IMG/VR virus record: IMGVR_UViG_3300029319_000038
Coordinates: 1-62,077 of that record
Source: a virus
Taxonomy: Duplodnaviria; Caudoviricetes
DNA: 62,077 bases
Reading direction: 5' to 3' (one strand)
The notes beneath the pieces are model-generated. The model worked only from the letters and a program-made list of their open reading frames with translations, was not told the origin of the DNA and made no database searches. Positions 5,665 to 50,013 of the stretch are shown piece after piece. Positions within the stretch are counted from its first letter, which is position 1. Each line of letters starts with the position of its first letter. The position numbers and the translations under genes are program-made.

Positions 5665-8600
5665 ATGGCTGTCGATAAGTTTAAGTTTGTTTCACCTGGA
5701 ATTTTTATTGATGAGATCGATGAATCTCAAGTCCCGGTGTTACCTGAAAGAATGGGTCCAGTGGTTATTGGACAATTTCAAAAAGGACCGGCGAATAGAC
5801 CTATTACGGTTCAGTCTTTTAAAGAGATGGTTGAGATCTTTGGCAACCCAACACCAGGCGTGCCTTCTAGAGATGCATGGAGATCGGGTGATCTGCAAGC
5901 GCCAACCTACGCAGCATATGCAGCTCAGGCATGGCTTCGAAACAACTCGCCATGCACAATTATCCGACTCCTTGGAAAAGCGCCGGCAAATGCTGTGGGG
6001 TATGACTTAGGCGCTAAATCTGAAGCCGGCTGGAGAACAGAAAAAGGCTTCAATGATGACATTGCTAACTCTGGTGGCGCTTATGGTCTTTTTATTATAC
6101 CTAACAATCTTACTAGCTCGGAAGGTACCGCTATTGACTTGACAAACGGCGCCGGATTTACCGGTGAAAAAGCACAAGCTGTTAGTGGCACACTAGCAGC
6201 AATTTGGTATGTAAAAAATGGCGCTGTTAGACTCCAAGGCATTCCGGTTCTTAGCGAGACGGGCGACACGACAGCGCGAACTTCCTCGGCAGGACAATGG
6301 ATTCGATCAACAAATCAGGCTTTTACAGTACAAATTCTTAATAATGTTGGAACTGCTGTTAAAAAAGCATCGTTTAACTTTGACAAAGACTCTGACCAGT
6401 TTATTAGAAAAGTTTTTAATACAAATCCAACTGTTGTCAACACAGCAATTACAACGACTGATAGTCAGCAAGTGTATTGGCTTGGTGAAACTTTTGAGAG
6501 AAGTGCAGTTGAAGAAACAGGCATAATGAATAATGACCAAACTCTTGAGCTACACCTTGCTAACGCCAATACCAGCCCCACAGGCGAATGGCTTGGAGTT
6601 ATCTTAGGACTTGATGGTGCTTCTGGTCAAGCAGATTTTGATTGGTGGAATCACCTTCAAAACAACCAGGCAGCTTCGACAGGCTTCTTCTTTTCTCAGG
6701 ATAATAGAGGAGTTACAACAGCTTCTTTTGACCCTGAAAGTCACACTGATAATTTGTTTAAGATTGTTGCCTTAGATTCTGGAGAACATGCAAATAAAGA
6801 TTACAAAATCTCTGTTCAGGACATTAAAGCGCCAAGCGATAACTTTAACGCTTATGGTACTTTTAGTGTTCTTGTTCGAAGTGCTTTCGATACAGACAAC
6901 AATCCGATTGTCTTAGAAAGGTTTAGTAATGTTAATTTAAACCCTGAATCGCAGAATTACATTGCTAGGGTCATTGGCGATCAGACTTTTGAGTTTGATG
7001 CGGCGACAAATGTTCTTAGAACAGTTGGGCTCAACCCCAACAATTCAAAATTAGTTAGAGTCGAGGTTACAGATACAGTTAAAAATGGCGAAGCAGCTGG
7101 GCTGCTTCCTTACGGTGTCTTTGGACCGGCTGTACCAAAAGATTTTACAATTATGTCTGGCACAGCAGCCGGCGCCCTGAGAGACGCAAGGTACGGTGCT
7201 GAGAAAGATCTCGACTATACTGCAGTTGGTGCTGCGGTTAAAGATTATGTTGTTGGCGGTACCGCTTCAGACTTTCCAAGCATAGTGGTGCCAGGACCGC
7301 GCGCTGATGCAACCCCTGGTGGAACTCTAGTTTTTTATAGCACCGGTAGTCATGCAGTAACTTTCCAGCACACTGCCTCAATCTCATGGCCAACAACAAG
7401 ATTAAGATTATCTTCTTCTGATGGTGGTCTAAATAAGCCAAGCCAGGCTTACTTTGGATATCAGTCTAACATTAAAGGCACAAAGCGTTTTGATAGACAA
7501 AATATTGATCTTTTAAGAAGTCAGCCAGCTAACTTTAATGGCACTGGTCCTGCAGCAAAGATCAGTGACGCCACGCAATACCAATATTCCTGGGCGTTTA
7601 CCTTAGATGATGTGAAAATATCTCAGACAGATAGCAGTCATTATCACTATGAAAGAGGCTCTAGGGCGAACGGGTCCTCGCGTACTGCTACAAACGGCTC
7701 TACTGCCATTTTGGATGCTGGTGTAAGTAAATTTACTTCGCCAATGTTTGGTGGTTTTGATGGTTTTGATATTACTGAGAAAGCACCGCTGAGAAACACT
7801 TATTTGTCAACCGGAGGTACGAGCGGCACAGAAACAACAAATTACGCCTACTACACAATCAAAAAAGCAATTGACACGATTGCTGATCCAGAATTTGTTG
7901 AGTTTGATTTGGCTACAATACCAGGTCTAACAAACGGATCATTAAACAACTTGTTAATTGATGCATGTGAAACAAGAAGCGATGCCTTGGCTATTGTTGA
8001 CCTTGAGGGTCTCCATCAGCCGGCTCACGAATCAAACTCTAGTGAAGCAAGCAGAAAAGGTAGTGTTTCAACAACAGTTACAAACTTAAAGAACTTGAAT
8101 ATCAACTCAAGCTACGCATGCACATTCTTCCCGTTTGTGCAGATTAGAGACTTGATTAACGATTCGATTCTGTTTGTACCACCTTCCGTTGTTGCTCTTG
8201 GCACAATGTCATCCTCCCAGCGCCGCTCCGCAGTTTGGTTTGCACCTGCAGGCTTCACTCGTGGCGGCTTAAGCGAGGGTAACGCAGGAATTCCTGTTCT
8301 TGGTGTCCATCAGCGATTAACATCTGATGATCGTGACACTCTATACGATGCAAATATTAACCCGATTGCATCTTTCCCTGCAGAGGGTGTGGTTGTCTTT
8401 GGACAAAAGACATTGCAAGTTACACCATCTGCTCTTGACAGAATCAACGTTAGAAGACTTATGATTTTTGTCAAGAAAGAGATTTCAAGAATCGCCTCGA
8501 CAGTTCTGTTTGATCAAAACGTGCAGTCGACTTGGGATAGATTCGTTGGTCAAGTTAAGCCATTCTTGGATGGCGTTAAAGCAGGTCTTGGTCTTACAGA

Positions 8601-18091: not shown

Positions 18092-19270
18092 ATGCTCTTT
18101 CAGGTGCTAGACGAAAAAAAAGAATGCTATGCAATATTTTGTGATGGCGAGTTGTTTAAGTACCCTAATAGTCTAGAGCTGACACACACTTGGTCGCATT
18201 CAGCTCACGCGCCGTTGGATGATGTTGAGTATGCATCGATATGGTGCGCTGGCAAAAGCTTAGATGAAGTTTGCCCTGAACATCTTAAGAACGAATGGCA
18301 ATTAATCAAAGCCAAGCTTAAAGCTTTTTCTAAAGCAGTGCAGACATCAAAAATTAACTTGTCTGACGTTTGTTTTTATGATTTTGTTTCAAAACAGTTT
18401 TTGATTGATTACTGCGCTTCAAAAAATAAAATAACAGAGTGGGTTTTTGCTAAATATGAAAAGCCAAAAAATTACGATCTTATGGAAAGCATCGTTAAGT
18501 TTACAACAAAAATAAAAAATCAACATTTAAACTTGGATTTAAAAAACTTAGACTTTTTAGATCCTGAAGTAAGAAAGACGTTTAATAAGATTAAATATGC
18601 GAACAGTAATATTATATACAATCCATGGGGCACTGTAACTGGCAGACTGTCAACCAAGCCTGATAGCTTCCCTATTTTGACGCTCAACAGGCAACTAAGA
18701 TCAGTTATAAAGCCAAACAATGATTTGTTTGTTGAGTTTGACTACAACGCTGCAGAGGTTCGCGTTCTGCTGGCTTTATTAGGAGAGGATCAGCCTGAGG
18801 GCGATTTGCATGATTGGATCGTTAAAAATATATTTGACGATAAATGCCCAAGAGAAAAAGCAAAAACAAGAGTGTTCAGGTGGTTATACAATCCCAAGGC
18901 ACAAAATAAAAGATTGAGCGAGAGGTTTGACAGGGAAGCTATTATTGATAAGCACTACAAAGATGGGTATGTATATACGCCTTTTGGTAGAAAAATTAAA
19001 GCTCCAGAAGAAAAAGCATTAAATTATATTATCCAGAGCACAACTAGCGATTTGTTTTTAACTAACATGCTTAAAGTTGATAAAATGCTTAGCAGCAGAA
19101 GGTCTTTTATTTCATTCTGCGTACATGATAGCTTTTTAATTGATTTTGCAAAAGAAGACCAGCCAATGATTCACGATATGATAGAGGCTTTTTCAGGCAC
19201 TACTTTTGGTGACTTTAAAGTTAACGTCAGCATGGGGAAGAGCTTTGGCACTATGAGGAAGGTACAATGA
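18092..19270 (+). CDS. Minimal family-A DNA polymerase-like protein
   Basis: TGRLS, motif A DYNAAEVR, motif B REKAK...F..LY, NYIIQST, motif C VHDS; only 392 aa. Confidence 0.75.
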   Translation: MLFQVLDEKKECYAIFCDGELFKYPNSLELTHTWSHSAHAPLDDVEYASIWCAGKSLDEVCPEHLKNEWQLIKAKLKAFSKAVQTSKINLSDVCFYDFVSKQFLIDYCASKNKITEWVFAKYEKPKNYDLMESIVKFTTKIKNQHLNLDLKNLDFLDPEVRKTFNKIKYANSNIIYNPWGTVTGRLSTKPDSFPILTLNRQLRSVIKPNNDLFVEFDYNAAEVRVLLALLGEDQPEGDLHDWIVKNIFDDKCPREKAKTRVFRWLYNPKAQNKRLSERFDREAIIDKHYKDGYVYTPFGRKIKAPEEKALNYIIQSTTSDLFLTNMLKVDKMLSSRRSFISFCVHDSFLIDFAKEDQPMIHDMIEAFSGTTFGDFKVNVSMGKSFGTMRKVQ

Positions 19271-20100
19271 ATTTAGTAGGTTTGGGAAACGCAGGTTGTC
19301 AAGTTGTCAAATGTCTAGAAAATTACCCACAATATAAGACTTTTTGTGTTGATACAGAAAATCAAGGGTATCGCAAGTTTGTCTCTGTTGAGTTACAAAA
19401 AAACCATGAAGAGTATGAAAAAAACTACAAAAAACTTAATCTTAGAGGCTTGAAGGGTCACACCACAGTTGTTTTAAATGGATCTGGTAATATCAGCGGT
19501 ATCGCATTAAGGTTATTGGAGCAAATTAAAAAGCACAAAACAGATGTGTTATACATTAAGTCAGATGAGCAAACTTTAACCGCTGAGGCAAAAATGAAAG
19601 AGAAGATAGTATTTTCTGTTTTGCAACAATATGCTAGGTCAAACATGATTAACAGGATGTGGATTGTAGATAATAAAAATGTTGAAAGCATCTTGGAGAA
19701 TGTTTCAATTAAAAACTACTGGCAAAACATAAACAATCTAATATCAAATACTTTTCACATGTATAATGTCTTTATTAACACCGAGCCGCTGTTGACAACC
19801 AAAGCTCAACCAACTGAAACTTGCAGAATAGGGACATTTGGTGTTGTTAATTTTGAAAATTCAAATGAGAGGCTGTTCTATGATCTGGAATACGCACGTT
19901 TTGTAAATTATTTCTACAATATCAATGAGCAAACGATGGAAAATGAGGGCAATATTCTCTCTAAAATCAGAGAGGAGGTTTCGAAAAAATCCAGTGAGGA
20001 GACTCACGTTGCTTTTTCTATATATCCAACAACTTATGATCAGAATTATGTTTATTCCTCTCACGTTGCTTCGTTTATTCAAGAGCAAAACATAAATTAA
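19267..20100 (+). CDS. Divergent tubulin/FtsZ-like protein (PhuZ-like)
   Basis: N-terminal VGLGNAGCQV, degenerate T4 loop GSGNISG, later IVDN and INNLI. Confidence 0.55.
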   Translation: MNLVGLGNAGCQVVKCLENYPQYKTFCVDTENQGYRKFVSVELQKNHEEYEKNYKKLNLRGLKGHTTVVLNGSGNISGIALRLLEQIKKHKTDVLYIKSDEQTLTAEAKMKEKIVFSVLQQYARSNMINRMWIVDNKNVESILENVSIKNYWQNINNLISNTFHMYNVFINTEPLLTTKAQPTETCRIGTFGVVNFENSNERLFYDLEYARFVNYFYNINEQTMENEGNILSKIREEVSKKSSEETHVAFSIYPTTYDQNYVYSSHVASFIQEQNIN

Positions 20101-20101
20101 T

Positions 20102-20129
20102 TTTACTGTTTAATTTTTGTTATTATCAT
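20102..20129 (+). promoter_or_regulatory. Sigma70-like promoter TTTACT-N16-TATCAT
   Basis: Member of the recurrent promoter class, with GT five bases before the -10 box. Confidence 0.6.
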
Positions 20130-20192
20130 ATACTCAAGCCGGTCAGGATATTAGCTGGCTGTACTATAGCACAACGCAAAAAGGAGTTAGAA

Positions 20193-20933
20193 ATGGCTAT
20201 TGATTTAAATAAAATGAAAGCAAAGCTTGATGCTTTGGAAAATCGCGGCGGCAGGCAGAAAAGTGTTTTCTGGCGTCCAGAAGATGGCGAACAGACAATC
20301 CGAATTGTCCCGACAGCGGATGGCGATCCATTCAAGGAGTACTGGTTTCACTACAACCTTGGTAAAAACGCAGGCTTTCTAAGCCCAAAGAAAAATTTTG
20401 GACAAGATGACCCACTTAATGATTTTGTCCGGCAGCTTTATAATGAAGGCTCTGATGAGTCTGTCAAGATGGCAAAGAGCCTTTCGGCGCGCCAGCGCTT
20501 CTTTGCTCCGGTTGTTGTACGTGGAGAAGAAGACAAGGGTGTTCGTCTATGGGGCTTTGGTAAAACAGCCTACAAAGAGCTTCTAAACCTTGTGCTCAAT
20601 CCAGAGTATGGAGACATCACCGATGTCAACGAGGGTACTGATCTTACTATTCAGTATGGCAAGCCGCCAGGCGCGCAGTTTCCACAAACTAGCATTACGC
20701 CTAGACGCAAGCCATCGCCTCTAGCGAAAACTGAGGATGAGATTAGCGCTTTTCTAGATCAGGTGCCTAATTTTGATGAAGTCTTTGAGCGCAAGACGCC
20801 TGAGCAAGTACAAGTCATGCTTGATGAGTTCTTGCTCTCTGAGTCAGACGCAGAAGAGGTCTCAACTGAGTCGACGCACTATAATACGCCAGCTACCCAG
20901 GTAGATAAGGCTTTTGCAGAGCTTCTTCCTTAA
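20193..20933 (+). CDS. Single-stranded DNA-binding protein (gp32-like)
   Basis: FWRP..GEQTIRIVP, HY, LWGFGK, YGDITD..EGTD, acidic C-terminus. Confidence 0.75.
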   Translation: MAIDLNKMKAKLDALENRGGRQKSVFWRPEDGEQTIRIVPTADGDPFKEYWFHYNLGKNAGFLSPKKNFGQDDPLNDFVRQLYNEGSDESVKMAKSLSARQRFFAPVVVRGEEDKGVRLWGFGKTAYKELLNLVLNPEYGDITDVNEGTDLTIQYGKPPGAQFPQTSITPRRKPSPLAKTEDEISAFLDQVPNFDEVFERKTPEQVQVMLDEFLLSESDAEEVSTESTHYNTPATQVDKAFAELLP

Positions 20934-20940
20934 GTCCTCC

Positions 20941-20972
20941 ACCGCAGGGGGGCATGGGTCTACAGATGCCCC
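20941..20972 (+). repeat. Intergenic structured motif copy 1 (ACCGCAGG-G-GGGCAT-loop-ATGCCC-C)
   Basis: Three near-identical copies with compensatory stem changes. Confidence 0.85.
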
Positions 20973-20996
20973 ACTTTACTTTAAAAAGGAGAAAAA

Positions 20997-21458
20997 ATGA
21001 GTTTGCATGAAAAATTAAAAGCTGCTAATTTAAGTGGCGATCACAAGTTGACATTAAGTTTTTCTGATGGCGCAGATGTTGTTCACGCTTGGGGTGGATA
21101 TGAAGAGGAAGTGCTTGAGGAGACAGATTTTGCAGGTCGAGTAGCATCTTTAATCACTGTTGCTGGCTTCAAAAATGATGTTATTGAAACTCTTCGTGAA
21201 GAAAATTATCTTGATGATTATCCCAGAGACCATTCCGGTTTTGAAGAGTTTGTTAGTGGTGTTATCAAAGAAAATTTCTGGGATATGGATTTTATTGAAC
21301 GTACAACTGAGCAGTATGACTACAAGAGGGGCTTCTTCTCGCTTGAGGTTAATGTTGAAACAACAGTTGGACAGGTTCTTTCGACTCCTGAAGTTTACTT
21401 TAGTGGCTGGAAGAGCAAGGTGGACACCGATCTAGGTGTCTTAAATATTGATGCATAA
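20997..21458 (+). CDS. Hypothetical acidic protein
   Basis: AAGGAG RBS, 153 aa. Confidence 0.75.
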   Translation: MSLHEKLKAANLSGDHKLTLSFSDGADVVHAWGGYEEEVLEETDFAGRVASLITVAGFKNDVIETLREENYLDDYPRDHSGFEEFVSGVIKENFWDMDFIERTTEQYDYKRGFFSLEVNVETTVGQVLSTPEVYFSGWKSKVDTDLGVLNIDA

Positions 21459-21472
21459 AAAAGGAGAAAACG

Positions 21473-21661
21473 ATGAATAATATGCCCGATACTTTAGATG
21501 AGATGATTAATCTTTTAAGCGCAGCTCGCGCAGACTATGAAAAGTTTTATAACAGCAACAACGCTTCCGCAGGGACTCGTGTTCGCAAAGTTATGCAAGA
21601 GATTAAAAATACTGCTCATGCTGTAAGGCAACACGTTCAAACTACTAAAAACGAGCGTTAG
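21473..21661 (+). CDS. Histone H1-like Hc1-family small protein
   Basis: DYEKFY..N.SAGTRVRK.MQEIK..A..VR motif; AAGGAG RBS. Confidence 0.7.
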   Translation: MNNMPDTLDEMINLLSAARADYEKFYNSNNASAGTRVRKVMQEIKNTAHAVRQHVQTTKNER

Positions 21662-21669
21662 TTTCTTAA

Positions 21670-21700
21670 ACCGCAGGCGGGCACGGGTTTATAGGTGCCC
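21670..21700 (+). repeat. Intergenic structured motif copy 2 (ACCGCAGG-C-GGGCAC-loop-GTGCCC)
   Basis: Same motif as copy 1. Confidence 0.85.
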
Positions 21701-21724
21701 TTTTACTACTAAAAGGATTTTATT

Positions 21725-22075
21725 ATGATTTTAAGAAATGTTTTAGCCGTCATGGCTTGTTTTGCAATTATGGTTGCCTGTAACCCACCTGCCGATACCT
21801 CAACGGCTGGAACTACAACAACCACTACAACTACAACTAATGTAGAAAGCACTACTGTTGGTAACACTAATACTGAGACAACCAACACAACTGGCGCAAC
21901 TGGAACTGCAACAGCTATCACTAATAGCAAATGTGATTGCACTGACTGTTCTGCATGCGCGAACACGGGAACTGTAGGCACCACAGGTGTTACAACAGAG
22001 CCCACAACAGGCACAACTACAACAGGTACGACTGCCACAACAAATACAACTACTGGCACAGCCACGACAAACTAG
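21725..22075 (+). CDS. Thr-rich putative lipoprotein
   Basis: Signal peptide with lipobox MVAC, poly-Thr/TTG repeats, CDCTDCSAC cluster. Confidence 0.7.
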   Translation: MILRNVLAVMACFAIMVACNPPADTSTAGTTTTTTTTTNVESTTVGNTNTETTNTTGATGTATAITNSKCDCTDCSACANTGTVGTTGVTTEPTTGTTTTGTTATTNTTTGTATTN

Positions 22076-22081
22076 TTGTTG

Positions 22082-22118
22082 ACCGCAGGAGGGCACGGGT
22101 CTATATTACAGGTGCCCT
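22082..22118 (+). repeat. Intergenic structured motif copy 3 (ACCGCAGG-A-GGGCAC-loop-GTGCCC-T)
   Basis: Same motif as copy 1. Confidence 0.85.
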
Positions 22119-22136
22119 GTTATTTTACGGAGGAAC

Positions 22137-22997
22137 ATGAAATCCCCTTTACGCTATCCAGGTGGGAAAACACGTGCTGTAAAGCATATTTTGCCACACA
22201 TACCTGATCATGCTGAGTATTGTGCCCCTTTTTTAGGTGGCGGCTCAGTTGAGCTGGCTTTAGCTGAAAGGGGCTCTGTCGTTTACGGCTATGATATTTT
22301 CAAGCCGCTAGTTTGGTTTTGGAAAGCCTTGCTTGAGAGCCCTTCTAAGTTAGCTGATATATCAGATTCTTATCGTGCGCCTGATGTTTATCTATACAAA
22401 GGCGAAGAACAATGCGAAAGAGGACTCTCAAGGGAGTTATTTAAAGCTTTTCGTGAGCAAATAAAGCAAGAGCTTGACAAAGACAGTCCCAGCTTTTCAT
22501 TTGATTTAGCCGCAAAGTTTTACGCAATCAATCGCTCAAGCTTTTCAGGCGCTACTTTCTCTGGCGGCTTTTCGAAGAGAGCTTCTTACGCTAGATTTAC
22601 TGATTCTTCAATTGATAGAATACGTAATTTTAAACAAGATAATTTATTTGTTGAGTGTGCAGATTTTGAAGAATCTATTTTAAAACACCCCAATGCGTTC
22701 CTATATTTAGATCCACCGTATATGTTATCTAAAAAACAACAAGAGAATCTTTATGGAGTTCAAGGCAACACCCACTCTGATTTCGATCATGGTCGACTTT
22801 TCTCTTTATTGAAAGATAGAAAAAATTGGGTTATGTCTTACGGTGGAGATGCAGATCAAATATTTGAGATGTACAATTCTTTTAAAATAATTGATTTAAG
22901 TGGTAAGTGGGCTTACGGAATGAAGAATGTTTCTTCAGAAAGTAAAAAAATGGGTAAGAGTTCAGAAATTTTAATTATAGGAGGAAAAAATGACTAA
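22137..22997 (+). CDS. DNA N6-adenine methyltransferase (Dam/D12 class)
   Basis: SPLRYPGGK, PFLGGGSV (motif I), YLDPPY (motif IV). Confidence 0.9.
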   Translation: MKSPLRYPGGKTRAVKHILPHIPDHAEYCAPFLGGGSVELALAERGSVVYGYDIFKPLVWFWKALLESPSKLADISDSYRAPDVYLYKGEEQCERGLSRELFKAFREQIKQELDKDSPSFSFDLAAKFYAINRSSFSGATFSGGFSKRASYARFTDSSIDRIRNFKQDNLFVECADFEESILKHPNAFLYLDPPYMLSKKQQENLYGVQGNTHSDFDHGRLFSLLKDRKNWVMSYGGDADQIFEMYNSFKIIDLSGKWAYGMKNVSSESKKMGKSSEILIIGGKND

Positions 22998-23709
22998 ACT
23001 TAATCCGGCTAAATCTGGCGCACAACATGAGCATATTATCGCTGAGCGCATTAATAATTGTTTTGATACTAATTCTATCAACTTTCAAGCTTTTGCTGAA
23101 GGTGGCTCAGGTCACAGCAGTGATGTTGTGATTAAAAATAATGCTGGCACCGTTATTGATAGTTTTGAAATTAAAACCAGCAAAGGCACAAGAATTGATT
23201 TTGGTCAGTTTAGGCTCCGCTTTGAAAATGGACGCTGCACACAGTCAACTGGCAGTAACAACCAAGCGCAAGCTAAGATATTTGATGTGCTTGAGCAACA
23301 ACTGAATTCTGCTAATTTTGATATGAGAAACATCCCTTCGGGTCCTACCTTGGATCAGCATGAAGCTGCGCAGTTTTGGTGCACTATCGACGACCGGTCT
23401 GGCACAAGCTTATCAGGCGATGTTTTAAAAGTTAGCTTGCCTAAGAGTCTTGTCGCTGATTATTATCGCGATAAAGGCGACAGCTACATTGTTTTGGGTG
23501 AAAGCATCTACTCTCTTCATGAGGGCTTGGAGATGTCTTTGACAAACTCTATTGAAGAGTGTTATGCGGTTTTTAGAATCAAATACCACTCAACAAATAA
23601 AAAGACAGGTAAAAAAACTTTTTCATATACGGTTGCTTTGAGAGCTAAGTTTTATAAAGATAAAACAACTAGCAGCTTTGAGCATGCCATACAAAAAATT
23701 TATTGTTAA
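22990..23709 (+). CDS. Putative PD-(D/E)XK restriction-like endonuclease
   Basis: GAQHE...SDVVI...FEIKT spacing; overlaps the methylase stop. Confidence 0.6.
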   Translation: MTKLNPAKSGAQHEHIIAERINNCFDTNSINFQAFAEGGSGHSSDVVIKNNAGTVIDSFEIKTSKGTRIDFGQFRLRFENGRCTQSTGSNNQAQAKIFDVLEQQLNSANFDMRNIPSGPTLDQHEAAQFWCTIDDRSGTSLSGDVLKVSLPKSLVADYYRDKGDSYIVLGESIYSLHEGLEMSLTNSIEECYAVFRIKYHSTNKKTGKKTFSYTVALRAKFYKDKTTSSFEHAIQKIYC

Positions 23710-23723
23710 AATAGGAGAAATAA

Positions 23724-24839
23724 ATGGCTAGAAAACAAGCAAAGAAACTTGGCAGGTTAAATCTTGCTGAGATGAGAAATTTAATTAATAAAAAAGTGGG
23801 CATGGAAGTTGCTCATGATCTTTCCAATGACAACCCAACAGAAGTCAAAGAATGGATCTCTACTGGGTCAAGGTGGCTTGATTCTGTTATTTGTCGTGGC
23901 AGGCTGGCTGGTATCCCAGTTGGTAAGATTGTGGAGATTGCTGGTCTTGAAGGATCTGGTAAGTCTTATATGGCAGCGCAGGTTGCTGCGAATGCTCAAA
24001 AGATGGGCATTGATGTTATTTATTTTGATTCAGAGTCTGCTATTGACCCTGAGTTTTTGGCTCGTGCTGGTTGTGACTTGAATACATTGTTGTATGTACA
24101 AGCACAGTCTGTTGAGTTTGTTTTGGAGACTATTGAGGAGTTACTAGGTTCTAATGAGAACCGTATGCTTTTCATCTGGGATAGTCTTGCCTTAACACCA
24201 TCTATCAGTGACGTTGAGGGTGACTTTAATCCTCAGTCTTCTATGGCTGTCAAGCCACGTATTCTTGCGAAGGGTATGTCAAAACTAACTGTACCTATTG
24301 CTAACTCACAGTCTACATTCTTGGTTCTTAATCAGTTAAAGACTAATATCACTAGTAATGTAGCAGAGGCTATGACAACTCCATATGTGACACCAGGTGG
24401 TAAGGCAATGCATTATGCTTACTCGCTACGCATTTGGCTTACAAAGCGTAAAGCAAAGGCTGCTTTCATTATGGATGACAATGGTTTCCGTGTTGGCTCC
24501 GAGGTGAAGGTTACACTAAAGAAAAGCCGTTTTGGAACAGAGGGACGACAATGTACGTTTAAAATCCTATGGGGTGGTGACGTTGGCATCCAAGACGAAG
24601 AGAGTTGGTTTGAGGCTGTAAAAAGCTCAGATAGTATCAAACAAGCTGGCGCATGGTATAATCTACTTTATGAAGATGGCACATCAGAAAAGTTCCAAGC
24701 CTCAAAGTGGAAAGAGAAACTACAAAGTGACAAGTTCCGCGCTAGAATTTTGCAGATCATGGATGACGAAATTATCATGCGCTTTGAGAAAAAAGAAGGC
24801 AAAGCTGGCGATTTTTATGACATTGACCCAGGTGAGTAA
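23724..24839 (+). CDS. recA: RecA/UvsX recombinase
   Basis: ISTGS..LD, GLEGSGKS Walker A, DSESA, IWDSLA, LNQLK, TPGGKA. Confidence 0.92.
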   Translation: MARKQAKKLGRLNLAEMRNLINKKVGMEVAHDLSNDNPTEVKEWISTGSRWLDSVICRGRLAGIPVGKIVEIAGLEGSGKSYMAAQVAANAQKMGIDVIYFDSESAIDPEFLARAGCDLNTLLYVQAQSVEFVLETIEELLGSNENRMLFIWDSLALTPSISDVEGDFNPQSSMAVKPRILAKGMSKLTVPIANSQSTFLVLNQLKTNITSNVAEAMTTPYVTPGGKAMHYAYSLRIWLTKRKAKAAFIMDDNGFRVGSEVKVTLKKSRFGTEGRQCTFKILWGGDVGIQDEESWFEAVKSSDSIKQAGAWYNLLYEDGTSEKFQASKWKEKLQSDKFRARILQIMDDEIIMRFEKKEGKAGDFYDIDPGE

Positions 24840-24851
24840 TGTTCTTATATT
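24823..24851 (+). promoter_or_regulatory. Sigma70-like promoter TTGACC-N17-TATATT
   Basis: Recurrent class; overlaps the end of recA. Confidence 0.5.
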
Positions 24852-24858
24852 ATTTGAA

Positions 24859-24866
24859 ACTATTTA
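24859..24866 (+). promoter_or_regulatory. Late-type promoter motif ACTATTTA
   Basis: Isolated late motif within the replication region. Confidence 0.6.
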
Positions 24867-24884
24867 AATAAGCGAGGGCTTTGT

Positions 24885-25223
24885 ATGGATAGTTTAAGGC
24901 AAGTGATAAAAGAATATTTATTTGAGGAGCTTTGGGAAGCACATTGCATCCTAAGATCTGACGATGATAAAAATATCACAAAAGTAACTGACAATCTGAG
25001 AGGACTGCGAGGCGTTACAGTTGTTACTGTTGATGGACCAGCAAAAAAAGTTGGTCCAGGCGTTGAGCGAACAAAGCTAAAAGTTAAATTTTTCCAAATG
25101 GCTCCAACAATGAAAGAGCAGTTGGCTAATATGTCCAACGAAGCTAGAAAAATTGATGGAGTCTTCTCTTTTATGCCTGTTCGTTGGAACAAAGTGGTCA
25201 GTAGGATTTATAGACCAAAATAG
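24885..25223 (+). CDS. Hypothetical protein with IKE/LFEE leader (candidate internal virion protein)
   Basis: MDSLRQVIKEYLFEE; late motif upstream; internal duplication LRGLRGV / ARKIDGV. Confidence 0.65.
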   Translation: MDSLRQVIKEYLFEELWEAHCILRSDDDKNITKVTDNLRGLRGVTVVTVDGPAKKVGPGVERTKLKVKFFQMAPTMKEQLANMSNEARKIDGVFSFMPVRWNKVVSRIYRPK

Positions 25224-25233
25224 AGAGGTAAAA

Positions 25234-26208
25234 ATGTATGAAGGTAAAAGGGTTTTAATTATTGACCAATTGAACCTTTTCTTCCGTAACTACATCGTTA
25301 ACCCTAGCTTGTCTGCTAATGGTATACCAATTGGTGGCTTGCGAGGGTGTATACAAAGTATTCAAAAAATTGCTAGGGAATCTAAGCCTGACGTAATTGT
25401 TGTTTGCTGGGATGGCGAGGGCGGATCAAAGAAGAGGAAGATTCTAAAAAAGGATTACAAAGCGGGCAGAAGCCCTATCCGCCTGAACAGAGATATCAGA
25501 AATATGTCTGAAGAGGAGGAGCTGCTTAACAAAGTATGGCAGCAAACTAGATTGGTTGATTATTACAATCAGACACCAATAATTCAGTTTATGTTCAAAA
25601 GCACAGAAGCTGATGATATTATTGCATTTATTTCACAAATGAAAGAGCTTGATGGTGCAGAAAAAATTATTGTGTCGAGCGATAAAGACTTTTTCCAGCT
25701 CTTAGATAAGAAGACCATACAATATCGCCCAACACAGAAGCAAATTTTGAATGAAAATTCTTTACTAGAACAATTTAATGTTCATCCTATGAACTTTGCG
25801 CTAGCACGTGCCATGGAGGGAGATAAGTCTGATAATATTGAAGGCATCGAGGGTCTTGGCATGAAAACTATTGCTAAGCGCTTTCCGATGCTCAGCGAGT
25901 CTCGCAGCGTAACAATCAAAGAGTTATTAGACCACTGCAGTGAGATGCAAAAAGAAAGCAAGGTGAAGGCATATCAAAAAGTGCTTGAAAATGAGGACAT
26001 ATTGAGGCGTAATTATCAGATGATGCAGCTTTATACTCCGATTTTAAGCATCGATGCCAAGAAAACAATAAAAGAGACATTTAGACAGCCTGATTTTACT
26101 TTTAATAAGACTTCATTAATTAAGATGATGATAAAAGATGGATTTGGCGAGATTAATTTCACTGAGCTGTTCCAGCACTTTAACAAAATTTGTGTGGACA
26201 AAGCTTAG
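25234..26208 (+). CDS. 5'-3' exonuclease / flap endonuclease (Pol I N-terminal/RNase H-like)
   Basis: LIID, WDG, YKAGR, EADDII, SSDKDF.QL, GDKSDNI.GI.G.G.KT; GAGG RBS before ATG 25234. Confidence 0.9.
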   Translation: MYEGKRVLIIDQLNLFFRNYIVNPSLSANGIPIGGLRGCIQSIQKIARESKPDVIVVCWDGEGGSKKRKILKKDYKAGRSPIRLNRDIRNMSEEEELLNKVWQQTRLVDYYNQTPIIQFMFKSTEADDIIAFISQMKELDGAEKIIVSSDKDFFQLLDKKTIQYRPTQKQILNENSLLEQFNVHPMNFALARAMEGDKSDNIEGIEGLGMKTIAKRFPMLSESRSVTIKELLDHCSEMQKESKVKAYQKVLENEDILRRNYQMMQLYTPILSIDAKKTIKETFRQPDFTFNKTSLIKMMIKDGFGEINFTELFQHFNKICVDKA

Positions 26209-27626: not shown

Positions 27627-29479
27627 ATTTACCAAATAAAATTTTATCAGACATTACCGTGCATATGAAATATGCGCGTTACATTTCAGACCTAGAGAGA
27701 AGAGAAACATGGGGTGAATTAGTTGATCGTAACAAAGCAATGCACCTCAAGAAGTATCCTAATTTAGGGAACGAAATAGAGGAGGCATATAATTATGTCT
27801 ATGAAAAGAAAGTTTTACCATCAATGCGATCCATGCAATTCGGCGGAAAGCCGATTGAAGTGGCACCTAACAGGATTTACAACTGTGCTTATATGCCTAT
27901 CGATCATCTCGCTTCTTTTTCTGAGTGCATGTTTCTCCTTCTTGGGGGCACTGGCGTTGGATTTAGCGTCCAAAGGCATCATGTGGATAAGCTTCCCGAA
28001 ATTCAGAAGCCGAGTTCGAAGCGCTCTAGAAGATATCTGGTCGCTGATTCGATCGAAGGATGGGCGGACGCAGTAAAGGTTTTAATCAATTCTTACTTTA
28101 AAGGTGGGTCTAGATTAAAATTTGACTTTTCTGATATCCGTCCGAAGGGAAGCGCACTACTTACTAGTGGAGGCAAGGCACCAGGTCCACAGCCACTTAA
28201 AGAGTGCCTCCTGAAAGTTCAGGGCGTCCTCCAGGAGAAGGATAATGGAGACAAGCTTGAACCCATTGAAGTGCATGATATCATTTGCCATATTGCTGAT
28301 GCTGTTCTTGCCGGGGGGATTCGTCGGGCTGCTCTTATTTCACTTTTTTCCGCAGAAGATGAAGAAATGCTTGCCGCAAAAACTGGCAACTGGTGGGAGA
28401 CAAATCCACAACGAGGGAGAGCAAACAACTCTGTTGTCTTGATGAGGCATCTCGTAACAAAAGATTTCTTTATGAAAATCTGGGATAGAGTGAAAGCGAG
28501 CGGCTCAGGAGAACCTGGCTTTTACTTATCAAATGATAAAGACTGGGGAACGAACCCATGCTGTGAAATTGCGCTTAAGCCTTATCAGTTCTGCAATCTA
28601 ACGGAGATTAACGCTTCTGACTTAGATTCGCAAGAGGAATATGAAGCGAGAGCAAAAGCAGCAGCTTTCATTGGTACCTTGCAGGCAGGCTACACTGATT
28701 TCCATTACTTACGTGATGTGTGGCGCAGAACGACTGAGAAAGACGCACTAGTTGGTGTTTCTATGACAGGTATTGCCTCTGGCAGGGTTTTAGATTTAGA
28801 TATGAAAGCTGCAGCTCTTGTTGTTAAAAAAGAGAATCGTCGAGTGGCAGCAATGATTGGCATTAAGCCTGCTGCAAGGACGACATGCGTCAAGCCAGCT
28901 GGCACTACTAGCCTTACTTTGGGCACTAGCTCTGGCATACATGCTTGGCACAACGATTATTATGTTAGAAGGATTAGGGTTGGCAAAAATGAGCCCATAT
29001 ACACGCATTTGATTATTCATCACCCAGAATTAGTTGAAGACGAGTATTTTAGACCACACGATACAGCTGTGATCACAGTACCTCAGAAAGCGCCAGAGGG
29101 TTCAATTACTCGCACAGAAAGCGCCCTTCAGCTTCTCAAACGCATTAAAGGCGTTACAGAGCAGTGGGTGCAGCCGGGGCACAGTAAAGGTCAGAATACG
29201 CATAACGTATCTGCTACAGTGTCAATTAAAGACGCAGAATGGATTGATGTTGGAGAATGGATGTGGGAAAACAGAAATTATTATAACGGCTTATCTGTTT
29301 TGCCTTTCAGTGACCACACTTACAAACAAGCGCCTTTTGAAGATTGCTCTAAAGAAAAATATGAGGTTCTTATGGAGAGCCTCGAAGAAGTAGACTTAAC
29401 TAAGGTTATTGAGCTTGATGACAATACAAATTTGTCCGGTGAGTTAGCCTGCAGTGGCGGGTCCTGCGAAATAATTTGA
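27623..29479 (+). CDS. nrdJ: Class II (adenosylcobalamin-dependent) ribonucleotide reductase
   Basis: KYARY, LPSMRSMQ, YNCAY, TNPCCEI, KPAGT, C-terminal ACSGGSCEI; no small-subunit gene nearby. Confidence 0.85.
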   Translation: MNLPNKILSDITVHMKYARYISDLERRETWGELVDRNKAMHLKKYPNLGNEIEEAYNYVYEKKVLPSMRSMQFGGKPIEVAPNRIYNCAYMPIDHLASFSECMFLLLGGTGVGFSVQRHHVDKLPEIQKPSSKRSRRYLVADSIEGWADAVKVLINSYFKGGSRLKFDFSDIRPKGSALLTSGGKAPGPQPLKECLLKVQGVLQEKDNGDKLEPIEVHDIICHIADAVLAGGIRRAALISLFSAEDEEMLAAKTGNWWETNPQRGRANNSVVLMRHLVTKDFFMKIWDRVKASGSGEPGFYLSNDKDWGTNPCCEIALKPYQFCNLTEINASDLDSQEEYEARAKAAAFIGTLQAGYTDFHYLRDVWRRTTEKDALVGVSMTGIASGRVLDLDMKAAALVVKKENRRVAAMIGIKPAARTTCVKPAGTTSLTLGTSSGIHAWHNDYYVRRIRVGKNEPIYTHLIIHHPELVEDEYFRPHDTAVITVPQKAPEGSITRTESALQLLKRIKGVTEQWVQPGHSKGQNTHNVSATVSIKDAEWIDVGEWMWENRNYYNGLSVLPFSDHTYKQAPFEDCSKEKYEVLMESLEEVDLTKVIELDDNTNLSGELACSGGSCEII

Positions 29480-29503
29480 TTTTTATAATTATGTGATTAT
29501 ATT
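29476..29503 (+). promoter_or_regulatory. Sigma70-like promoter TTGATT-N16-TATATT
   Basis: Recurrent class. Confidence 0.55.
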
Positions 29504-29530
29504 AATTCCATACCCGAGGAGGAGGTCATT

Positions 29531-42229: not shown

Positions 42230-42257
42230 TTGATTTAATTTATAATGTGCTTATATT
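42230..42257 (+). promoter_or_regulatory. Sigma70-like promoter TTGATT-N16-TATATT
   Basis: Recurrent class; upstream of groEL. Confidence 0.6.
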
Positions 42258-42275
42258 AATCTCAGAGAGGTATAT

Positions 42276-47330: not shown

Positions 47331-47403
<73 letters not shown>

Positions 47404-47431
47404 TTTATTATCTTCAAAAAAGGAGTTTATT

Positions 47432-47764
47432 ATGAAGATGTTAATGACAATGCTAGTGATGTCGCTAGCGCTTGTAGGATGTGGCGATTCAGATGACCCT
47501 GTTGCTCCAGTGCAGGAGGAAGAGGTAGTGTCTGATGTCGTTGAGTCTGACGCAGAAGTTTCTGATTCTGATGTTGACTCTGCTGACGATGTTTCTATGT
47601 TAGATGCAGAGGAAGACGCAGCCGAGGAGGTTGAAGAAGCAGCTGCAGAAGAGGCAGAAGAAGAAGCCGAGGAGGAAGAGGAAGCAGCAATGGATGGAGA
47701 CCCCACTCGCTTTGGCGGTGAGAACTTTTCATCACAGTTTGTTCCAGCTTCTCAGATCCCATAA
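47432..47764 (+). CDS. Acidic putative lipoprotein
   Basis: Lipobox LVGC, followed by a D/E/A-rich low-complexity body. Confidence 0.75.
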   Translation: MKMLMTMLVMSLALVGCGDSDDPVAPVQEEEVVSDVVESDAEVSDSDVDSADDVSMLDAEEDAAEEVEEAAAEEAEEEAEEEEEAAMDGDPTRFGGENFSSQFVPASQIP

Positions 47765-47792
47765 GATCACGGGCGCTTAGCGCCCAACTTTT

Positions 47793-47879
47793 GGCTGAGT
47801 GGTGGAATTGGCATACACAACAGACTTAAAATCTGTCGCCCAATTGGGCTTGCGGGTTCGAGTCCCGCCTCAGCTACCA
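47793..47879 (+). tRNA. tRNA-Leu(TAA)
   Basis: ACAGA-CTTAAAA-TCTGT anticodon arm, long variable arm, encoded CCA. Confidence 0.92.
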
Positions 47880-47884
47880 AACAT

Positions 47885-47956
47885 GGTCCCATCGTCTAGC
47901 GGTTAGGATGTCGCCCTTTCACGGCGAAGACAGGGGTTCGATTCCCCTTGGGACTA
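47885..47956 (+). tRNA. tRNA-Glu(TTC), CCA not encoded
   Basis: GGTCCCA/TGGGACT acceptor stem, CTTTCAC anticodon loop. Confidence 0.9.
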
Positions 47957-47973
47957 CACGCACGGAGGAAAAA

Positions 47974-48141
47974 ATGAAGTACGTTTTTATTATCGCAGTT
48001 ATCATTGGTTTATCAGGATGCCGAGTTGCTTATCCGTCCATTGGTGTGAAGGCTCCTAAATGGAAGAAGTGTGTTACTGTGCACCAATGTTACGGTGGTA
48101 ATCACAACTGCCGTAAGATAGTGACTTGCTACCGTGGATAA
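47974..48141 (+). CDS. Small Cys-rich putative lipoprotein
   Basis: GGAGG RBS; MKYVFIIAVIIGLSGC lipobox. Confidence 0.7.
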   Translation: MKYVFIIAVIIGLSGCRVAYPSIGVKAPKWKKCVTVHQCYGGNHNCRKIVTCYRG

Positions 48142-48146
48142 GACAC

Positions 48147-48223
48147 GGGCTCTTAGCTCAGTTGGTTAGAGCCCCCCGCTCATAACGGGGTAGTCCTCGG
48201 TTCGAGTCCGAGAGAGCCCACCA
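48147..48223 (+). tRNA. tRNA with CAT anticodon (Ile2-like or elongator Met)
   Basis: GGGCTCT/AGAGCCC acceptor with G1-C72 (not an initiator), CTCATAA loop, encoded CCA. Confidence 0.9.
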
Positions 48224-48243
48224 AACACTACTTACTATGAAAT

Positions 48244-48750
48244 ATGTTAAATTCCTACCAAGCTCTGAAACTAGACGCATCCTTTAGACCAATAGCAATT
48301 GTATCATCAACAGAAGCTCTAGTTTCTCATCTTCTAGGAAAAGTAACAATATTAGAGACTTACGACAGAGAGATTAGATCACCTTCTGAATCATTCTTTC
48401 TGCCGTCTGTAATCGCTCTCAAGAATAAGATTGTTAAGCAGACAAGCTCATTCACATGTACAACAAAAAATTTAAGGATAAGAGACGATGGTGTCTGTCA
48501 GTACTGTCGTTGCCATATCCCACCAGGCAAAGAAACAATTGACCACGTTGTACCAAAATGCCAAGGTGGCAAAAAAGAATGGACAAACGTTGTCCTTTGC
48601 TGCCACAAATGCAATCAAAAGAAAGGTTCAAAAAGCTTGGAACAATCTGGGTTTAGATTATTAAACAAGCCCAAGCCACTTGACTATACAACCTATTTAA
48701 AGAAAGTTACCATCCAAACAGATGTTTGGCGTTTATATTTAAAGTTTTGA
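48244..48750 (+). CDS. HNH endonuclease
   Basis: RD...CQYC, TIDHVVP...GG...WTNVV.CC.KCN.KKG. Confidence 0.9.
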   Translation: MLNSYQALKLDASFRPIAIVSSTEALVSHLLGKVTILETYDREIRSPSESFFLPSVIALKNKIVKQTSSFTCTTKNLRIRDDGVCQYCRCHIPPGKETIDHVVPKCQGGKKEWTNVVLCCHKCNQKKGSKSLEQSGFRLLNKPKPLDYTTYLKKVTIQTDVWRLYLKF

Positions 48751-48775
48751 TACTATATTAATAACTGGAGGAGTT

Positions 48776-49720
48776 ATGTATAATTTAGGCTATGCTTGTG
48801 TCAATATGGAATTGTCTTATCCGAAAGAGTGGGGCAACAAACCCAGGGGCACTGAGCGAATTACAACCAATCGCACGATGATTCGCAAGACATTTGACGC
48901 CAAGGGCTTGCCTTACGCTAGCCAACTTACGCTGCAGAACGTGTTGGATCTTGAGAAGATCATCCAGTGGAACGAGGACCATGATATTAAATTCTATCGC
49001 ATGTCCTCTGAAATGTTCCCATGGGCTAGTGAATATCAGTTTGAGCAGCTGCCTGACTTTGAAGCTATTGCAGCTTCTTTGCAGCGCTCAGGCGAGCTGG
49101 CTCGTAAGTATGGTCAGCGCTTGACATATCACCCAGGACCTTTCAACAAGCTGACCTCTCCGAAGGAACACGTTGTAGCTAACACAGTTAAAGACTTGGA
49201 GATTCACGGCAGGATCATGGACTTGTTAGGTATGCCTCGCACTCCATACGCCAAGATTAATATCCATGTTGGCGCACATTACAACAACAAGCCAATGGCA
49301 ATTGACAACTTCTGTCGCAACTTTCATCGCTTGTCAGACGCAGTTAAGACTCGCCTGACAGTTGAGAATGACGACAAAGCTAGTCTCTACTCGACTAAAG
49401 AGTTGCATGATGAGATATACAAACGAATTGGCATCCCCGTTGTATTTGATTACCACCACCACAAGTTCTGCACTGGCGGTCAAGATGAGGAGGAGGCTTT
49501 GCTTACTGCTTGTGTGACCTGGGATGATGTTCGCCCTGTTGTGCACTTCTCACAATCCCGTGCAGTTGAGCACAACAATCCAAAGATTAAAGCAAACGCA
49601 CACTCTGATTCATATTGGGAAAAAATAAATCTTTACAATCTAGATTTAGATATTATGTTGGAGTGTAAGCACAAAGAGATTGGGCTTTACAAAATGCGCG
49701 AACTTATGGAGGCAGCATGA
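48776..49720 (+). CDS. uvsE: UV-damage endonuclease
   Basis: LGYACVN, FYRMSS, HPG.F, NIHVG, ENDD, FDYHHH, AHSD, MLECK.KE. Confidence 0.9.
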   Translation: MYNLGYACVNMELSYPKEWGNKPRGTERITTNRTMIRKTFDAKGLPYASQLTLQNVLDLEKIIQWNEDHDIKFYRMSSEMFPWASEYQFEQLPDFEAIAASLQRSGELARKYGQRLTYHPGPFNKLTSPKEHVVANTVKDLEIHGRIMDLLGMPRTPYAKINIHVGAHYNNKPMAIDNFCRNFHRLSDAVKTRLTVENDDKASLYSTKELHDEIYKRIGIPVVFDYHHHKFCTGGQDEEEALLTACVTWDDVRPVVHFSQSRAVEHNNPKIKANAHSDSYWEKINLYNLDLDIMLECKHKEIGLYKMRELMEAA

Positions 49721-49848
49721 AGTACAGTAGAATGTTGAAAAGGAACTTTGGATTTGGAGATACTGAAAAGACATCTAACGCAATGTTGGCAACTTTGATA
49801 CTTTCAGGTTGGGCAGTATCGCTTATCGTTTACCTAATCACAACTTGA
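49717..49848 (+). CDS. Small membrane protein (43 aa, not in ORF track)
   Basis: GGAGG RBS, ATGA overlap, C-terminal hydrophobic helix. Confidence 0.55.
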   Translation: MKYSRMLKRNFGFGDTEKTSNAMLATLILSGWAVSLIVYLITT

Positions 49849-49854
49849 TTAACT

Positions 49855-49931
49855 GCCTCCTTAGCTCAGCTGGCTAGAGCAGCTGATTTGTAATCAGCAG
49901 GTCCACGGTTCGAGTCCGTGAGGAGGCTCCA
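49855..49931 (+). tRNA. tRNA-Thr(TGT)
   Basis: GCCTCCT/AGGAGGC acceptor stem, TTTGTAA loop, encoded CCA. Confidence 0.92.
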
Positions 49932-49936
49932 TTTAT

Positions 49937-50013
49937 GCGCCCGTAGCTCAGATGGATAGAGCATCGGTCTTCTAAACCGAGGGTCACAGGTTCGAATCCT
50001 GTCGGGCGCGCCA
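49937..50013 (+). tRNA. tRNA-Arg(TCT)
   Basis: GCGCCCG/CGGGCGC acceptor stem, CTTCTAA loop, encoded CCA. Confidence 0.93.

Follow-up and report, generated by a model that had tools for sequence, protein, structure and literature searches.

Covarying RNA pseudoknots at gene-cassette boundaries between the SSB and RecA genes of uncultured marine phages

The window analyzed here is a 62-kb virus record from IMG/VR (IMGVR_UViG_3300029319_000038, positions 1 to 62,077), estimated to be 34% complete, and all open reading frames (ORFs) scanned from 18 to 26 kb lie on its + strand. The genes for a gp32-like single-strand DNA-binding protein (SSB) and for a RecA/UvsX-like recombinase are core genes that form the left and right borders of an island of accessory genes, and within this island a short intergenic motif occurs three times, each time ahead of a different cassette. 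We describe this motif as an RNA pseudoknot; no copy lies directly 5' of RecA in the window. The island and its borders are arranged as follows.

20193-20933, + strand: gp32-like SSB gene (Pfam gp32 PF08804, E 1.7e-13; phrog_1192)
20941-20972, + strand: pseudoknot copy 1 (59.4 bits)
20997-21458, + strand: cassette 1, acidic 153-aa ORF (no Pfam or PHROG match)
21473-21661, + strand: cassette 1, Hc1 histone-like protein gene (PF07432)
21670-21701, + strand: pseudoknot copy 2 (54.3 bits)
21725-22075, + strand: cassette 2, Thr-rich 116-aa ORF (no family; N-terminal hydrophobic stretch and Cys by sequence reading)
22082-22118, + strand: pseudoknot copy 3 (48.6 bits)
22137-22997, + strand: cassette 3, D12-class N6-adenine DNA methyltransferase gene (Pfam PF02086, E 1.3e-30)
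22990-23709, + strand: cassette 3, 239-aa ORF (no Pfam or PHROG family)
23724-24839, + strand: RecA/UvsX-like recombinase gene (Pfam RecA, E 2.3e-36; phrog_97 UvsX-like)

The string ACCGCAGG-N-GGGCAY is present without mismatch on the + strand at 20941, 21670, and 22082 (100 shuffles gave a mean of 0.26 matches, and none of the 100 reached three), and the hairpin pattern GGGCAYGGGT...RTGCCC has three matches in the window against 0.00 expected. A covariance model run over the whole window with filters off returned these three sites only, with the scores listed above and the next best hit at 7.2 bits (E 1.7); a broader second model (R2) gave the same three sites only at E<=1. Pattern, hairpin, and covariance scans thus agree on exactly the three sites that the initial annotation had claimed from the letters. 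The stop codons upstream end at 20933, 21661, and 22075, leaving gaps of 7, 8, and 6 nt, and the next starts, at 20997, 21725, and 22137, lie 25, 24, and 19 nt past RTGCCC (the 3' end of the motif as first drawn), so the spacings first given, 6 to 8 nt after a stop and about 20 nt before a start, are borne out by measurement. The cargo was also read correctly for the acidic ORF with Hc1, the Thr-rich ORF, and the methylase, the last of these and Hc1 by Pfam; the name "nuclease" given to the 239-aa ORF has no Pfam match behind it.

An exact scan of IMG/VR with an 18-position pattern yielded 117 loci, of which 104 match the covariance model; the remaining 13 are chance matches in G+C-rich coding DNA, without the hairpin. 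Including the three copies in the window, the family comprises 161 instances with 112 distinct 41-nt sequences and 60 distinct cores, and its consensus is ACCGCAGG-GGGGCAY-G-GGU-UUACAG-RUGCCCC-A. The fetched loci, cited by L numbers where they need to be told apart, carry one copy in 65 cases, two in 32, three in nine, and five in one; the 172-kb (95% complete) and 183-kb records hold three each, the 84-kb and 63-kb records two each, and the 45-kb record one. These copy counts are lower bounds because a divergent copy in L048, in which loop L1 reads AUGGG, is missed by both covariance models; R2 added no new sites in the window or in the five large records. With only one to three copies in records of 45 to 183 kb, the motif is therefore not a general terminator or promoter of these phages. 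The SSB and RecA proteins of motif-bearing phages are 46 to 77% and 54 to 82% identical, respectively, to those of the window.

The motif family consists of compact H-type RNA pseudoknots on the + strand mRNA of a clade of uncultured marine phages. Its commonest form is 31 to 32 nt long, a little longer where the loop is longer, and is laid out as S1 (NCC), L1 (GCAGG), S2 (7 bp), a junction G, S1' (GGN), L3 (UUACAG), and S2'. The parts of the three window copies, with the 5' and 3' sides of each helix marked a and b, are given below.

Copy 1, 20941-20972, + strand: S1a ACC 20941-43; L1 GCAGG 20944-48; S2a GGGGCAT 20949-55; junction G 20956; S1b GGT 20957-59; L3 CTACAG 20960-65; S2b ATGCCCC 20966-72
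Copy 2, 21670-21701, + strand: S1a ACC 21670-72; L1 GCAGG 21673-77; S2a CGGGCAC 21678-84; junction G 21685; S1b GGT 21686-88; L3 TTATAG 21689-94; S2b GTGCCCT 21695-21701
Copy 3, 22082-22118, + strand: S1a ACC 22082-84; L1 GCAGG 22085-89; S2a AGGGCAC 22090-96; junction G 22097; S1b GGT 22098-22100; L3 CTATATTACAG 22101-11; S2b GTGCCCT 22112-18

Copy 1 is followed by A-C-TTTACTTTAAAAAGGAG and then by the ATG at 20997. The stem covariation noted in the initial annotation (CAT/ATG versus CAC/GTG; outer pair G-C versus A-T) is present in the window as claimed, and the outer pair of copy 2 is a C-U mismatch, which leaves its S2 with 6 bp. L3 of copy 3 is 5 nt longer than L3 of copies 1 and 2. In copy 3 only, a TTG flank, the ACC, and the longer loop together form a sigma-70-like TTGACC-17-TATATT (22079-22107, 10/12 matches) just 5' of the methylase gene. 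A promoter inside the motif was considered for the family and rejected, as only this window copy fits and the consensus loop TACAGR lacks the last T of the -10 box.

The two helices of the motif interlock and each carries compensatory changes, which identifies it as an H-type pseudoknot. For S2, 99.5% of cells are paired over 83 distinct sequences, and double changes occur at three pairs (C-G 44 and U-A 39; G-C 70, A-U 9, and G-U 1; G-C 65, A-U 13, and G-U 5); one further pair is G-C in 64 sequences and G-U in 19, and the other three are invariant. This covariation was not forced by the way in which the sequences were collected, because the picking pattern allowed mismatches at the variable positions. 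The S2 cells include 25 G-U against 1 A-C, an excess that places the fold on the sense strand, in keeping with an RNA. For S1 (3 bp), the three bases 5' of GCAGG pair with the three bases after the first loop G in 59 of the 60 distinct cores, whereas partner shuffles gave 30.3 ± 3.3 paired cores and none of 2000 reached 59; the sole exception has a 2-nt junction and pairs if shifted by one. The combinations seen, by number of cores, were as follows.

ACC/GGU: 35
CCC/GGG: 14
UCC/GGG: 4
UCC/GGA: 2
GCC/GGU: 2
GCC/GGC: 1
AGC/GCU: 1

L1 is GCAGG in 57 of the 60 cores and ACAGG in 3, the junction is G in 56 of 60, and L3 is mostly 6 nt long and ends in AG; the S2 centre (GGCA/UGCC) and both loops are nearly invariant. 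Covariation, for which the initial annotation had proposed a test, is seen as double changes in S2 and as seven combinations in S1, and its remark that the unpaired parts are conserved extends to the whole family. The pairing between flank and loop that it suggested stands for the core, ACC/GGU; its extension to AAACC/GGTTT and GACC/GGTC was rejected, as those columns are only 55.4% paired and show no double change.

Two further structural features were observed. A divergent pseudoknot subtype, with S1 CCC/GGG, L1 ACAGG or AUGGG, junction A, and L3 ending in UCAG, is found in L048 (oriented copy at about 6515-6555), L024, L029, L032, and L104, usually further 5' in the island than the main type; its L3 is AUAUCAG in L048, L024, and L029, and it is the AUGGG form that both covariance models miss. 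In the spacer 5' of some copies, a CCCCC run could pair with the G run of S2, an alternative fold seen for copy 1; the run itself was noticed by eye in some related loci.

We next consider the genes around the motif, for which 124 distinct contexts were available. A simple ORF rule found no upstream ORF in 20 of these; in 94 of the 104 contexts with an upstream ORF, the motif begins no more than 14 nt past the stop codon (median, 8 nt), and the distance from stem to start is at most 35 nt in 103 of 121 contexts (median, 25 nt). Every instance is oriented as the genes are. Behind the stem come an A (81% at +1), any base, a T-rich run (T 67 to 72% at +4 to +6), an A-rich stretch, and a Shine-Dalgarno box. 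Of 80 leaders behind the motif, 46 have a TTTT run and 26 have TTTAA, compared with 77 and 84, respectively, of 628 other leaders of the same loci. A simple U-tract rule is passed in 57 of 122 contexts, with the tract beginning 2 to 3 nt past the stem. In three contexts it is a tRNA gene and not an ORF that follows, 6 to 25 nt past the stem (tRNA-Asn in L073, tRNA-Thr in L130, and tRNA-Gly in L093), and in L073 and L130 the tRNA starts only 6 to 8 nt past it; the core role of the element therefore cannot depend on a ribosome-binding site. The tRNA-Asn gene of L073 (3006-3081) sits as a "cassette" of its own between the last pseudoknot and RecA. Because the motif starts 4 to 14 nt past stop codons, a stimulator of read-through or frameshifting was also considered; it was rejected, as distances of 6, 7, 8, and 9 nt are about equally common, so that the element is read in all three frames and no conserved extension is possible.

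A G+C-rich 7-bp stem just past a stop codon with a T-rich tract behind it, passing the U-tract rule in nearly half of its contexts, is also what would be seen if the motif were an ordinary intrinsic terminator that had been spread by duplication and owed its extra conservation to recent common descent, and the promoter-early stem-loops (PeSLs) of T4-type phages, which have GGGG...CCCC stems, are shown to terminate in an excerpt of PMC2839356. We consider this reading improbable. A terminator has no need of S1, which covaries through seven combinations that no shuffle matched; the loops are nearly invariant even though the SSBs are only 46 to 77% identical to that of the window, and the conservation is therefore not recent descent. 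The loop, moreover, measures 10 to 15 nt against the 3 to 8 nt of an intrinsic terminator, an A-N spacer separates the stem from the U run, and genes or tRNAs lie downstream without a promoter of their own, with the tRNAs of L073 and L130 directly behind the stem. The initial annotation had taken the conserved unpaired parts to set the motif apart from a plain terminator, and in this it went too far: a U-rich tract is present in about half of the contexts, and weak termination may therefore still occur.

The motif is closely tied to one junction. Every copy lies between SSB and RecA in 85 of the 86 loci that have both genes (129 of 132 copies); in the remaining locus, L033, three copies stand upstream of SSB. 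The motif thus marks the boundaries of unrelated cargo in an SSB-RecA island, as first proposed for the window. SSB homologues (42 distinct proteins) are encoded just upstream of the motif in 47 instances and just downstream of it in none. The cultured phages most closely related by SSB are Flavobacterium phage immuto (38.9% identity) and Microcystis phage Mel-JY01 (34.0%). They share the order PolA, ..., SSB, RecA, 5'-3' exonuclease, helicase, with SSB and RecA directly adjacent at only 2 nt (immuto) or 8 nt (Mel-JY01), whereas the SSB-RecA distance in the motif-bearing clade is 68 to 5302 nt (median, 1043 nt). In L037, the order is simply SSB, one motif, and RecA, with no cassette. Tandem copies stand nearly head to tail in some loci, with 7 nt (L024, L032) or 10 nt (L052, L110) from the stem end to the next ACC.

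This position behind an SSB gene recalls the operator of T4 gene 32. By analogy, SSB or another conserved phage protein would nucleate on the pseudoknot, spread 3', and repress translation of RecA or of the cassette. The T4 and RB69 operators, as far as the excerpt of PMC535899 describes them, are likewise H-type pseudoknots of large lytic phages, on mRNA from around the SSB gene, and an unstructured A/U-rich segment (UUAAA/UAAA) leads from them into the ribosome-binding site. The first copy of the motif always stands behind the SSB gene where that gene is upstream (47 instances), the distance to the next start is tight, TTTAA is in excess in the leaders, and the invariant loops suggest a specific binding partner. 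The motif, however, is 3' of the SSB gene and 5' of other genes, not in the SSB 5' leader, with L033 alone having copies upstream of SSB; it occurs in multiple copies, and three of these precede tRNA genes, where there is no translation to repress. In T2 and T4, the helix and loop sizes of the pseudoknot differ from those of the motif; no resemblance in sequence was noticed, though no comparison aimed at it was made. The SSB gene also has a different conserved structure of its own, and we therefore regard repression of this kind as unlikely.

That second structure is a hairpin in the SSB 5' leader, at 20137-20160 in the window, and all 8 of its predicted pairs show compensatory double changes over 64 distinct leaders. 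A ACTTTAAC box (ACT[TC]TAAC) stands behind it in 28 of 69 leaders; the window has ACTATAGC at about 20162-20171. A box common to both kinds of leader was considered and rejected, as it is found behind only 2 of 80 motif copies. A promoter-like TTTACT-16-TATCAT lies 5' of the hairpin at 20102-20129 in the window, and several loci have a consensus sigma-70 promoter just upstream of it. The hairpin is possibly the SSB gene's own operator or a 5' stabilizer, and it may correspond to candidates upstream of GP32 genes in a 2023 structured-RNA mining of IMG/VR, the collection from which the present family was also drawn (PMC10690425). As far as that paper's text was available, it lists 8495 unnamed covarying intergenic candidates, 12 of them upstream of GP32 genes; the pseudoknot is not described in its main text and may be among the unnamed candidates.

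The pseudoknot constitutes a new structured RNA family that falls outside every curated one. At the gathering threshold, Rfam 15 found only 6 tRNAs in the whole window and only tRNAs in 12 more motif-bearing loci; at E<=10 over 20800-22300, nothing at the motif scored above 18 bits. An Rfam search had been proposed in the initial annotation, which recognized no riboswitch or ribozyme family in the motif, and the result agrees with it. The freshwater-2 RNA (RF02980) gave weak partial alignments at 20908-20999 and 21423-21475 that rest mainly on a shared ribosome-binding site, AAAGGAGAAAA...AUG; it was rejected, as its scores, 17.8 and 18.0 bits, fall far short of the gathering score of 49.9, one match is off the motif, and the first two hairpins of that family are absent. 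Among 50,697 cultured phage records, neither the island DNA nor a 47-nt instance of the motif had a match, the latter being a weak result since a low-complexity filter may have masked the G run. The specific pattern had 5 matches in 185,579 bacterial and archaeal species genomes, all on contigs of metagenome-assembled genomes, and these indicate no host. A full-text literature search with motif strings found no paper on the motif among the matches listed, in which two 10-letter strings matched unrelated subjects. The phage stretch itself is present in marine or seawater DNA sequencing runs of 13 studies, one of which is possibly the source of the window.

The lack of an Rfam match, a compact pseudoknot in which about 20 unpaired or helix-core positions hardly vary, and the presence of several copies per phage locus, which is also how hammerhead, twister, and pistol ribozymes are distributed, could point to a catalytic or ligand-sensing RNA, either a small self-cleaving pseudoknot of a new kind, by which polycistronic messages would be cut at cassette boundaries, or the aptamer of a riboswitch. 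We find this very doubtful. No self-cleaving class found in nature is known to be made up solely of an H-type pseudoknot with two helices; for a riboswitch, there is no alternative structure that sequesters the ribosome-binding site, and the downstream genes are unrelated (methylase, FKBP, Zn-ribbon, small membrane proteins, tRNA), unlike a riboswitch regulon.

Comparison of related loci shows that DNA is gained, lost, and replaced at the motif, the outcome for which the initial annotation had suggested looking. L048 and L099 share 99.7% identity along 5397 bp that reach 19 nt beyond the motif; at that point L048 has 550 extra bp with a 157-aa gene, ending in the divergent second pseudoknot, and the two loci then run on at 99.5% identity. 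Where L029 has one copy, L032 has two with about 1 kb between them, and L054 and L059 are 98% identical on both sides of, but differ in, the DNA between two shared copies. Over all alignments between loci of at least 80% identity and 300 bp, 122 of 548 internal ends fall within 40 nt of a motif centre, although such windows make up 1.5% of the bases. Because alignments tend to end at gene boundaries anyway, motif sites were compared with other gene starts: with alignments of at least 90% identity, breakpoints were found at 21 of 161 motif sites and at 49 of 1012 other gene starts, an enrichment of about 2.7-fold per site that is a moderate signal, because the motif itself was used to retrieve every locus and many of the pairs are related. 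Two DNA contigs skip from the 3' end of SSB into RecA (20924 to 23772 and 20788 to 24024), the shorter side of the join being just 20 letters, below the reliable level; a depth peak at 21613-22014 is low-complexity Thr-codon sequence common to other organisms.

With co-oriented cassettes, a structured repeat at each junction, and cassette indels and replacements that break there, the motif might instead act at the DNA level only, as a structured single-strand recombination site like an integron attC or as a protein-binding site at cassette ends. An attC site, however, is an imperfect palindrome of 57 to 141 nt and works with an adjacent site-specific tyrosine recombinase gene; the present element is a pseudoknot of 32 to 40 nt, and no recombinase or integrase family was found among the ten ORFs scanned at 18092-26208. 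Both the placement of the motif with respect to stop codons and ribosome-binding sites and its U-rich tail suit an element of the transcript, and the L048/L099 exchange is explained by homology between two copies, so a purely DNA-level role is scarcely credible. A sequence of about 40 nt is repeated at each boundary, and the copies therefore also serve as homology patches; we infer that recombination at them needs only the identity of the copies and the phage's own SSB and RecA system. It looks like the homology-driven exchange between repeats that is proposed for PeSLs.

The cargo carried between the copies is, over the family, typical accessory material: Dam-type methylases, Hc1, FKBP isomerase, a DUF7695 zinc-ribbon protein, a GmrSD-N protein, and many small proteins that begin with a hydrophobic segment and end in an acidic or Thr-rich tail. 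The commonest cluster downstream of the motif is made up of ORFs of about 157 aa (27 downstream instances), and a cluster of 62- to 69-aa ORFs that includes the Hc1 of the window is upstream of 10 and downstream of 9 motif instances. Translations read by eye show cassette proteins of 80 to 110 aa with a hydrophobic or lipoprotein-like N-terminus and an acidic or Thr-rich tail, like the ORF at 21725-22075 of the window, in L006, L039, L045, L052, L073, L074, L084, L085, and L089. Elsewhere in the window, six + strand tRNA genes are clustered at 47331-50010, and an A+T-rich, promoter-like 31-nt repeat, TTGAT...TATATTAAT, is present in three copies at 29476-29506, 42230-42260, and 48732-48762.

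Among known systems, the motif most calls for comparison with the PeSL, a mobile regulatory cassette of T4-type phages (PMC2839356; PMC4122927, both in excerpt). As described there, PeSLs too are short conserved intergenic repeats with a stem built on GGGG...CCCC, are concentrated in a hyperplastic region of non-essential genes, and coincide with indel and replacement breakpoints between close phages, the proposed mechanism being that the phage recombination system exchanges DNA by homology between repeats of <50 bp. A PeSL, however, carries a strong sigma-70-like promoter with an AT-rich upstream element, whereas the motif consensus, ACCGCAGGGGGGCAYGGGTTTACAGRTGCCCC, has no -35/-10 pair, and the leader behind the motif, at 18 to 31 nt, is too short for a promoter. 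PeSLs are described in those excerpts as plain stem-loops occurring by the dozen over several regions; the motif is a pseudoknot with covariation in both helices and invariant loops, present in 1 to 5 copies at one junction. The phage lineage also differs, having a family A polymerase and not being T4-type. The motif thus behaves like a promoter-less, pseudoknotted counterpart of PeSLs.

Taken from sequence comparison, the reading that we favor, at a probability of roughly 0.4, is that the pseudoknot punctuates the mRNA in cis, either at 3' ends, which it would form or protect, or as a weak terminator, and that its repeats are also points of recombination, like PeSLs. Standing about 8 nt past a stop codon with A-N-UUUU behind it, the element would serve the message upstream, chiefly that of the highly expressed SSB gene, by creating its 3' end or shielding it. 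This could come about through weak intrinsic termination, through endonuclease cleavage in the U-rich tract immediately 3' of the element, or through both; the downstream gene or tRNA would still be expressed, through read-through or processing. The nearly invariant loops and S2 core suggest that a conserved factor recognizes the folded RNA, and the phage recombination system would insert, delete, and swap cassettes at the repeated copies. The tRNA cases fit processing and speak against strong termination and against a purely translational role. Positions +1 to +5, of the form R-N-W-U-U, are similar to what RNase E prefers, which we take as a lead only. Given the conserved hairpin in the SSB 5' leader, the SSB message may be structure-capped at both ends. 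The initial annotation had offered a cis-regulatory or processing RNA and a cassette-boundary recombination site as alternatives; each is partly right, in that the element is structured on the sense strand and cassettes are exchanged at it, and they probably both hold, since the two are not exclusive.

Several observations weigh against mRNA punctuation of this kind. The hairpin is poor as a terminator, given its 10-nt loop, the A-N spacer before the U run, and the U-tract count above; a terminator scan called none of the three window stems, its one nearby call (22108-22120) being a different small hairpin, and efficient termination is hard to reconcile with tRNA genes that follow the motif so closely that no promoter would fit in between. 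A plain protective 3' hairpin, in turn, needs neither a pseudoknot nor invariant loops, which implies a specific partner factor. Single-sequence folding energies are unremarkable, with z between -0.2 and -0.6. In one metatranscriptome, contigs cover parts of the SSB and Hc1 genes, but these are contigs that show neither RNA ends nor strand, and DNA carry-over is possible. The breakpoint enrichment is moderate and comes from loci all chosen for the motif, with many pairs that are not independent.

A bolder version, which we regard as a long shot, is that the pseudoknot represents a new class of small processing RNA, self-cleaving or the specific target of a conserved nuclease, that would cut polycistronic messages into stable units and travel with the cassettes. 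If this were true, a newly acquired gene would arrive with its own RNA punctuation; and if the element proved to be catalytic or a specific operator, it would be a compact, portable part for the control of operon expression.

With covariation behind both of its helices in more than 100 phage contigs, this is a well-supported structured RNA family, and it joins the few conserved cis-elements known from uncultured marine phages. Its nearly invariant loops predict a conserved partner, which may be a nuclease, RNA polymerase, the ribosome, or the phage SSB. It would also extend the PeSL idea from T4-type coliphages to an unrelated phage lineage with an element that has no promoter, and it ties an RNA-level element to modular gene shuffling, in that what may be the punctuation of the transcript is at the same time the patch of homology where these phages acquire, lose, and swap accessory genes.

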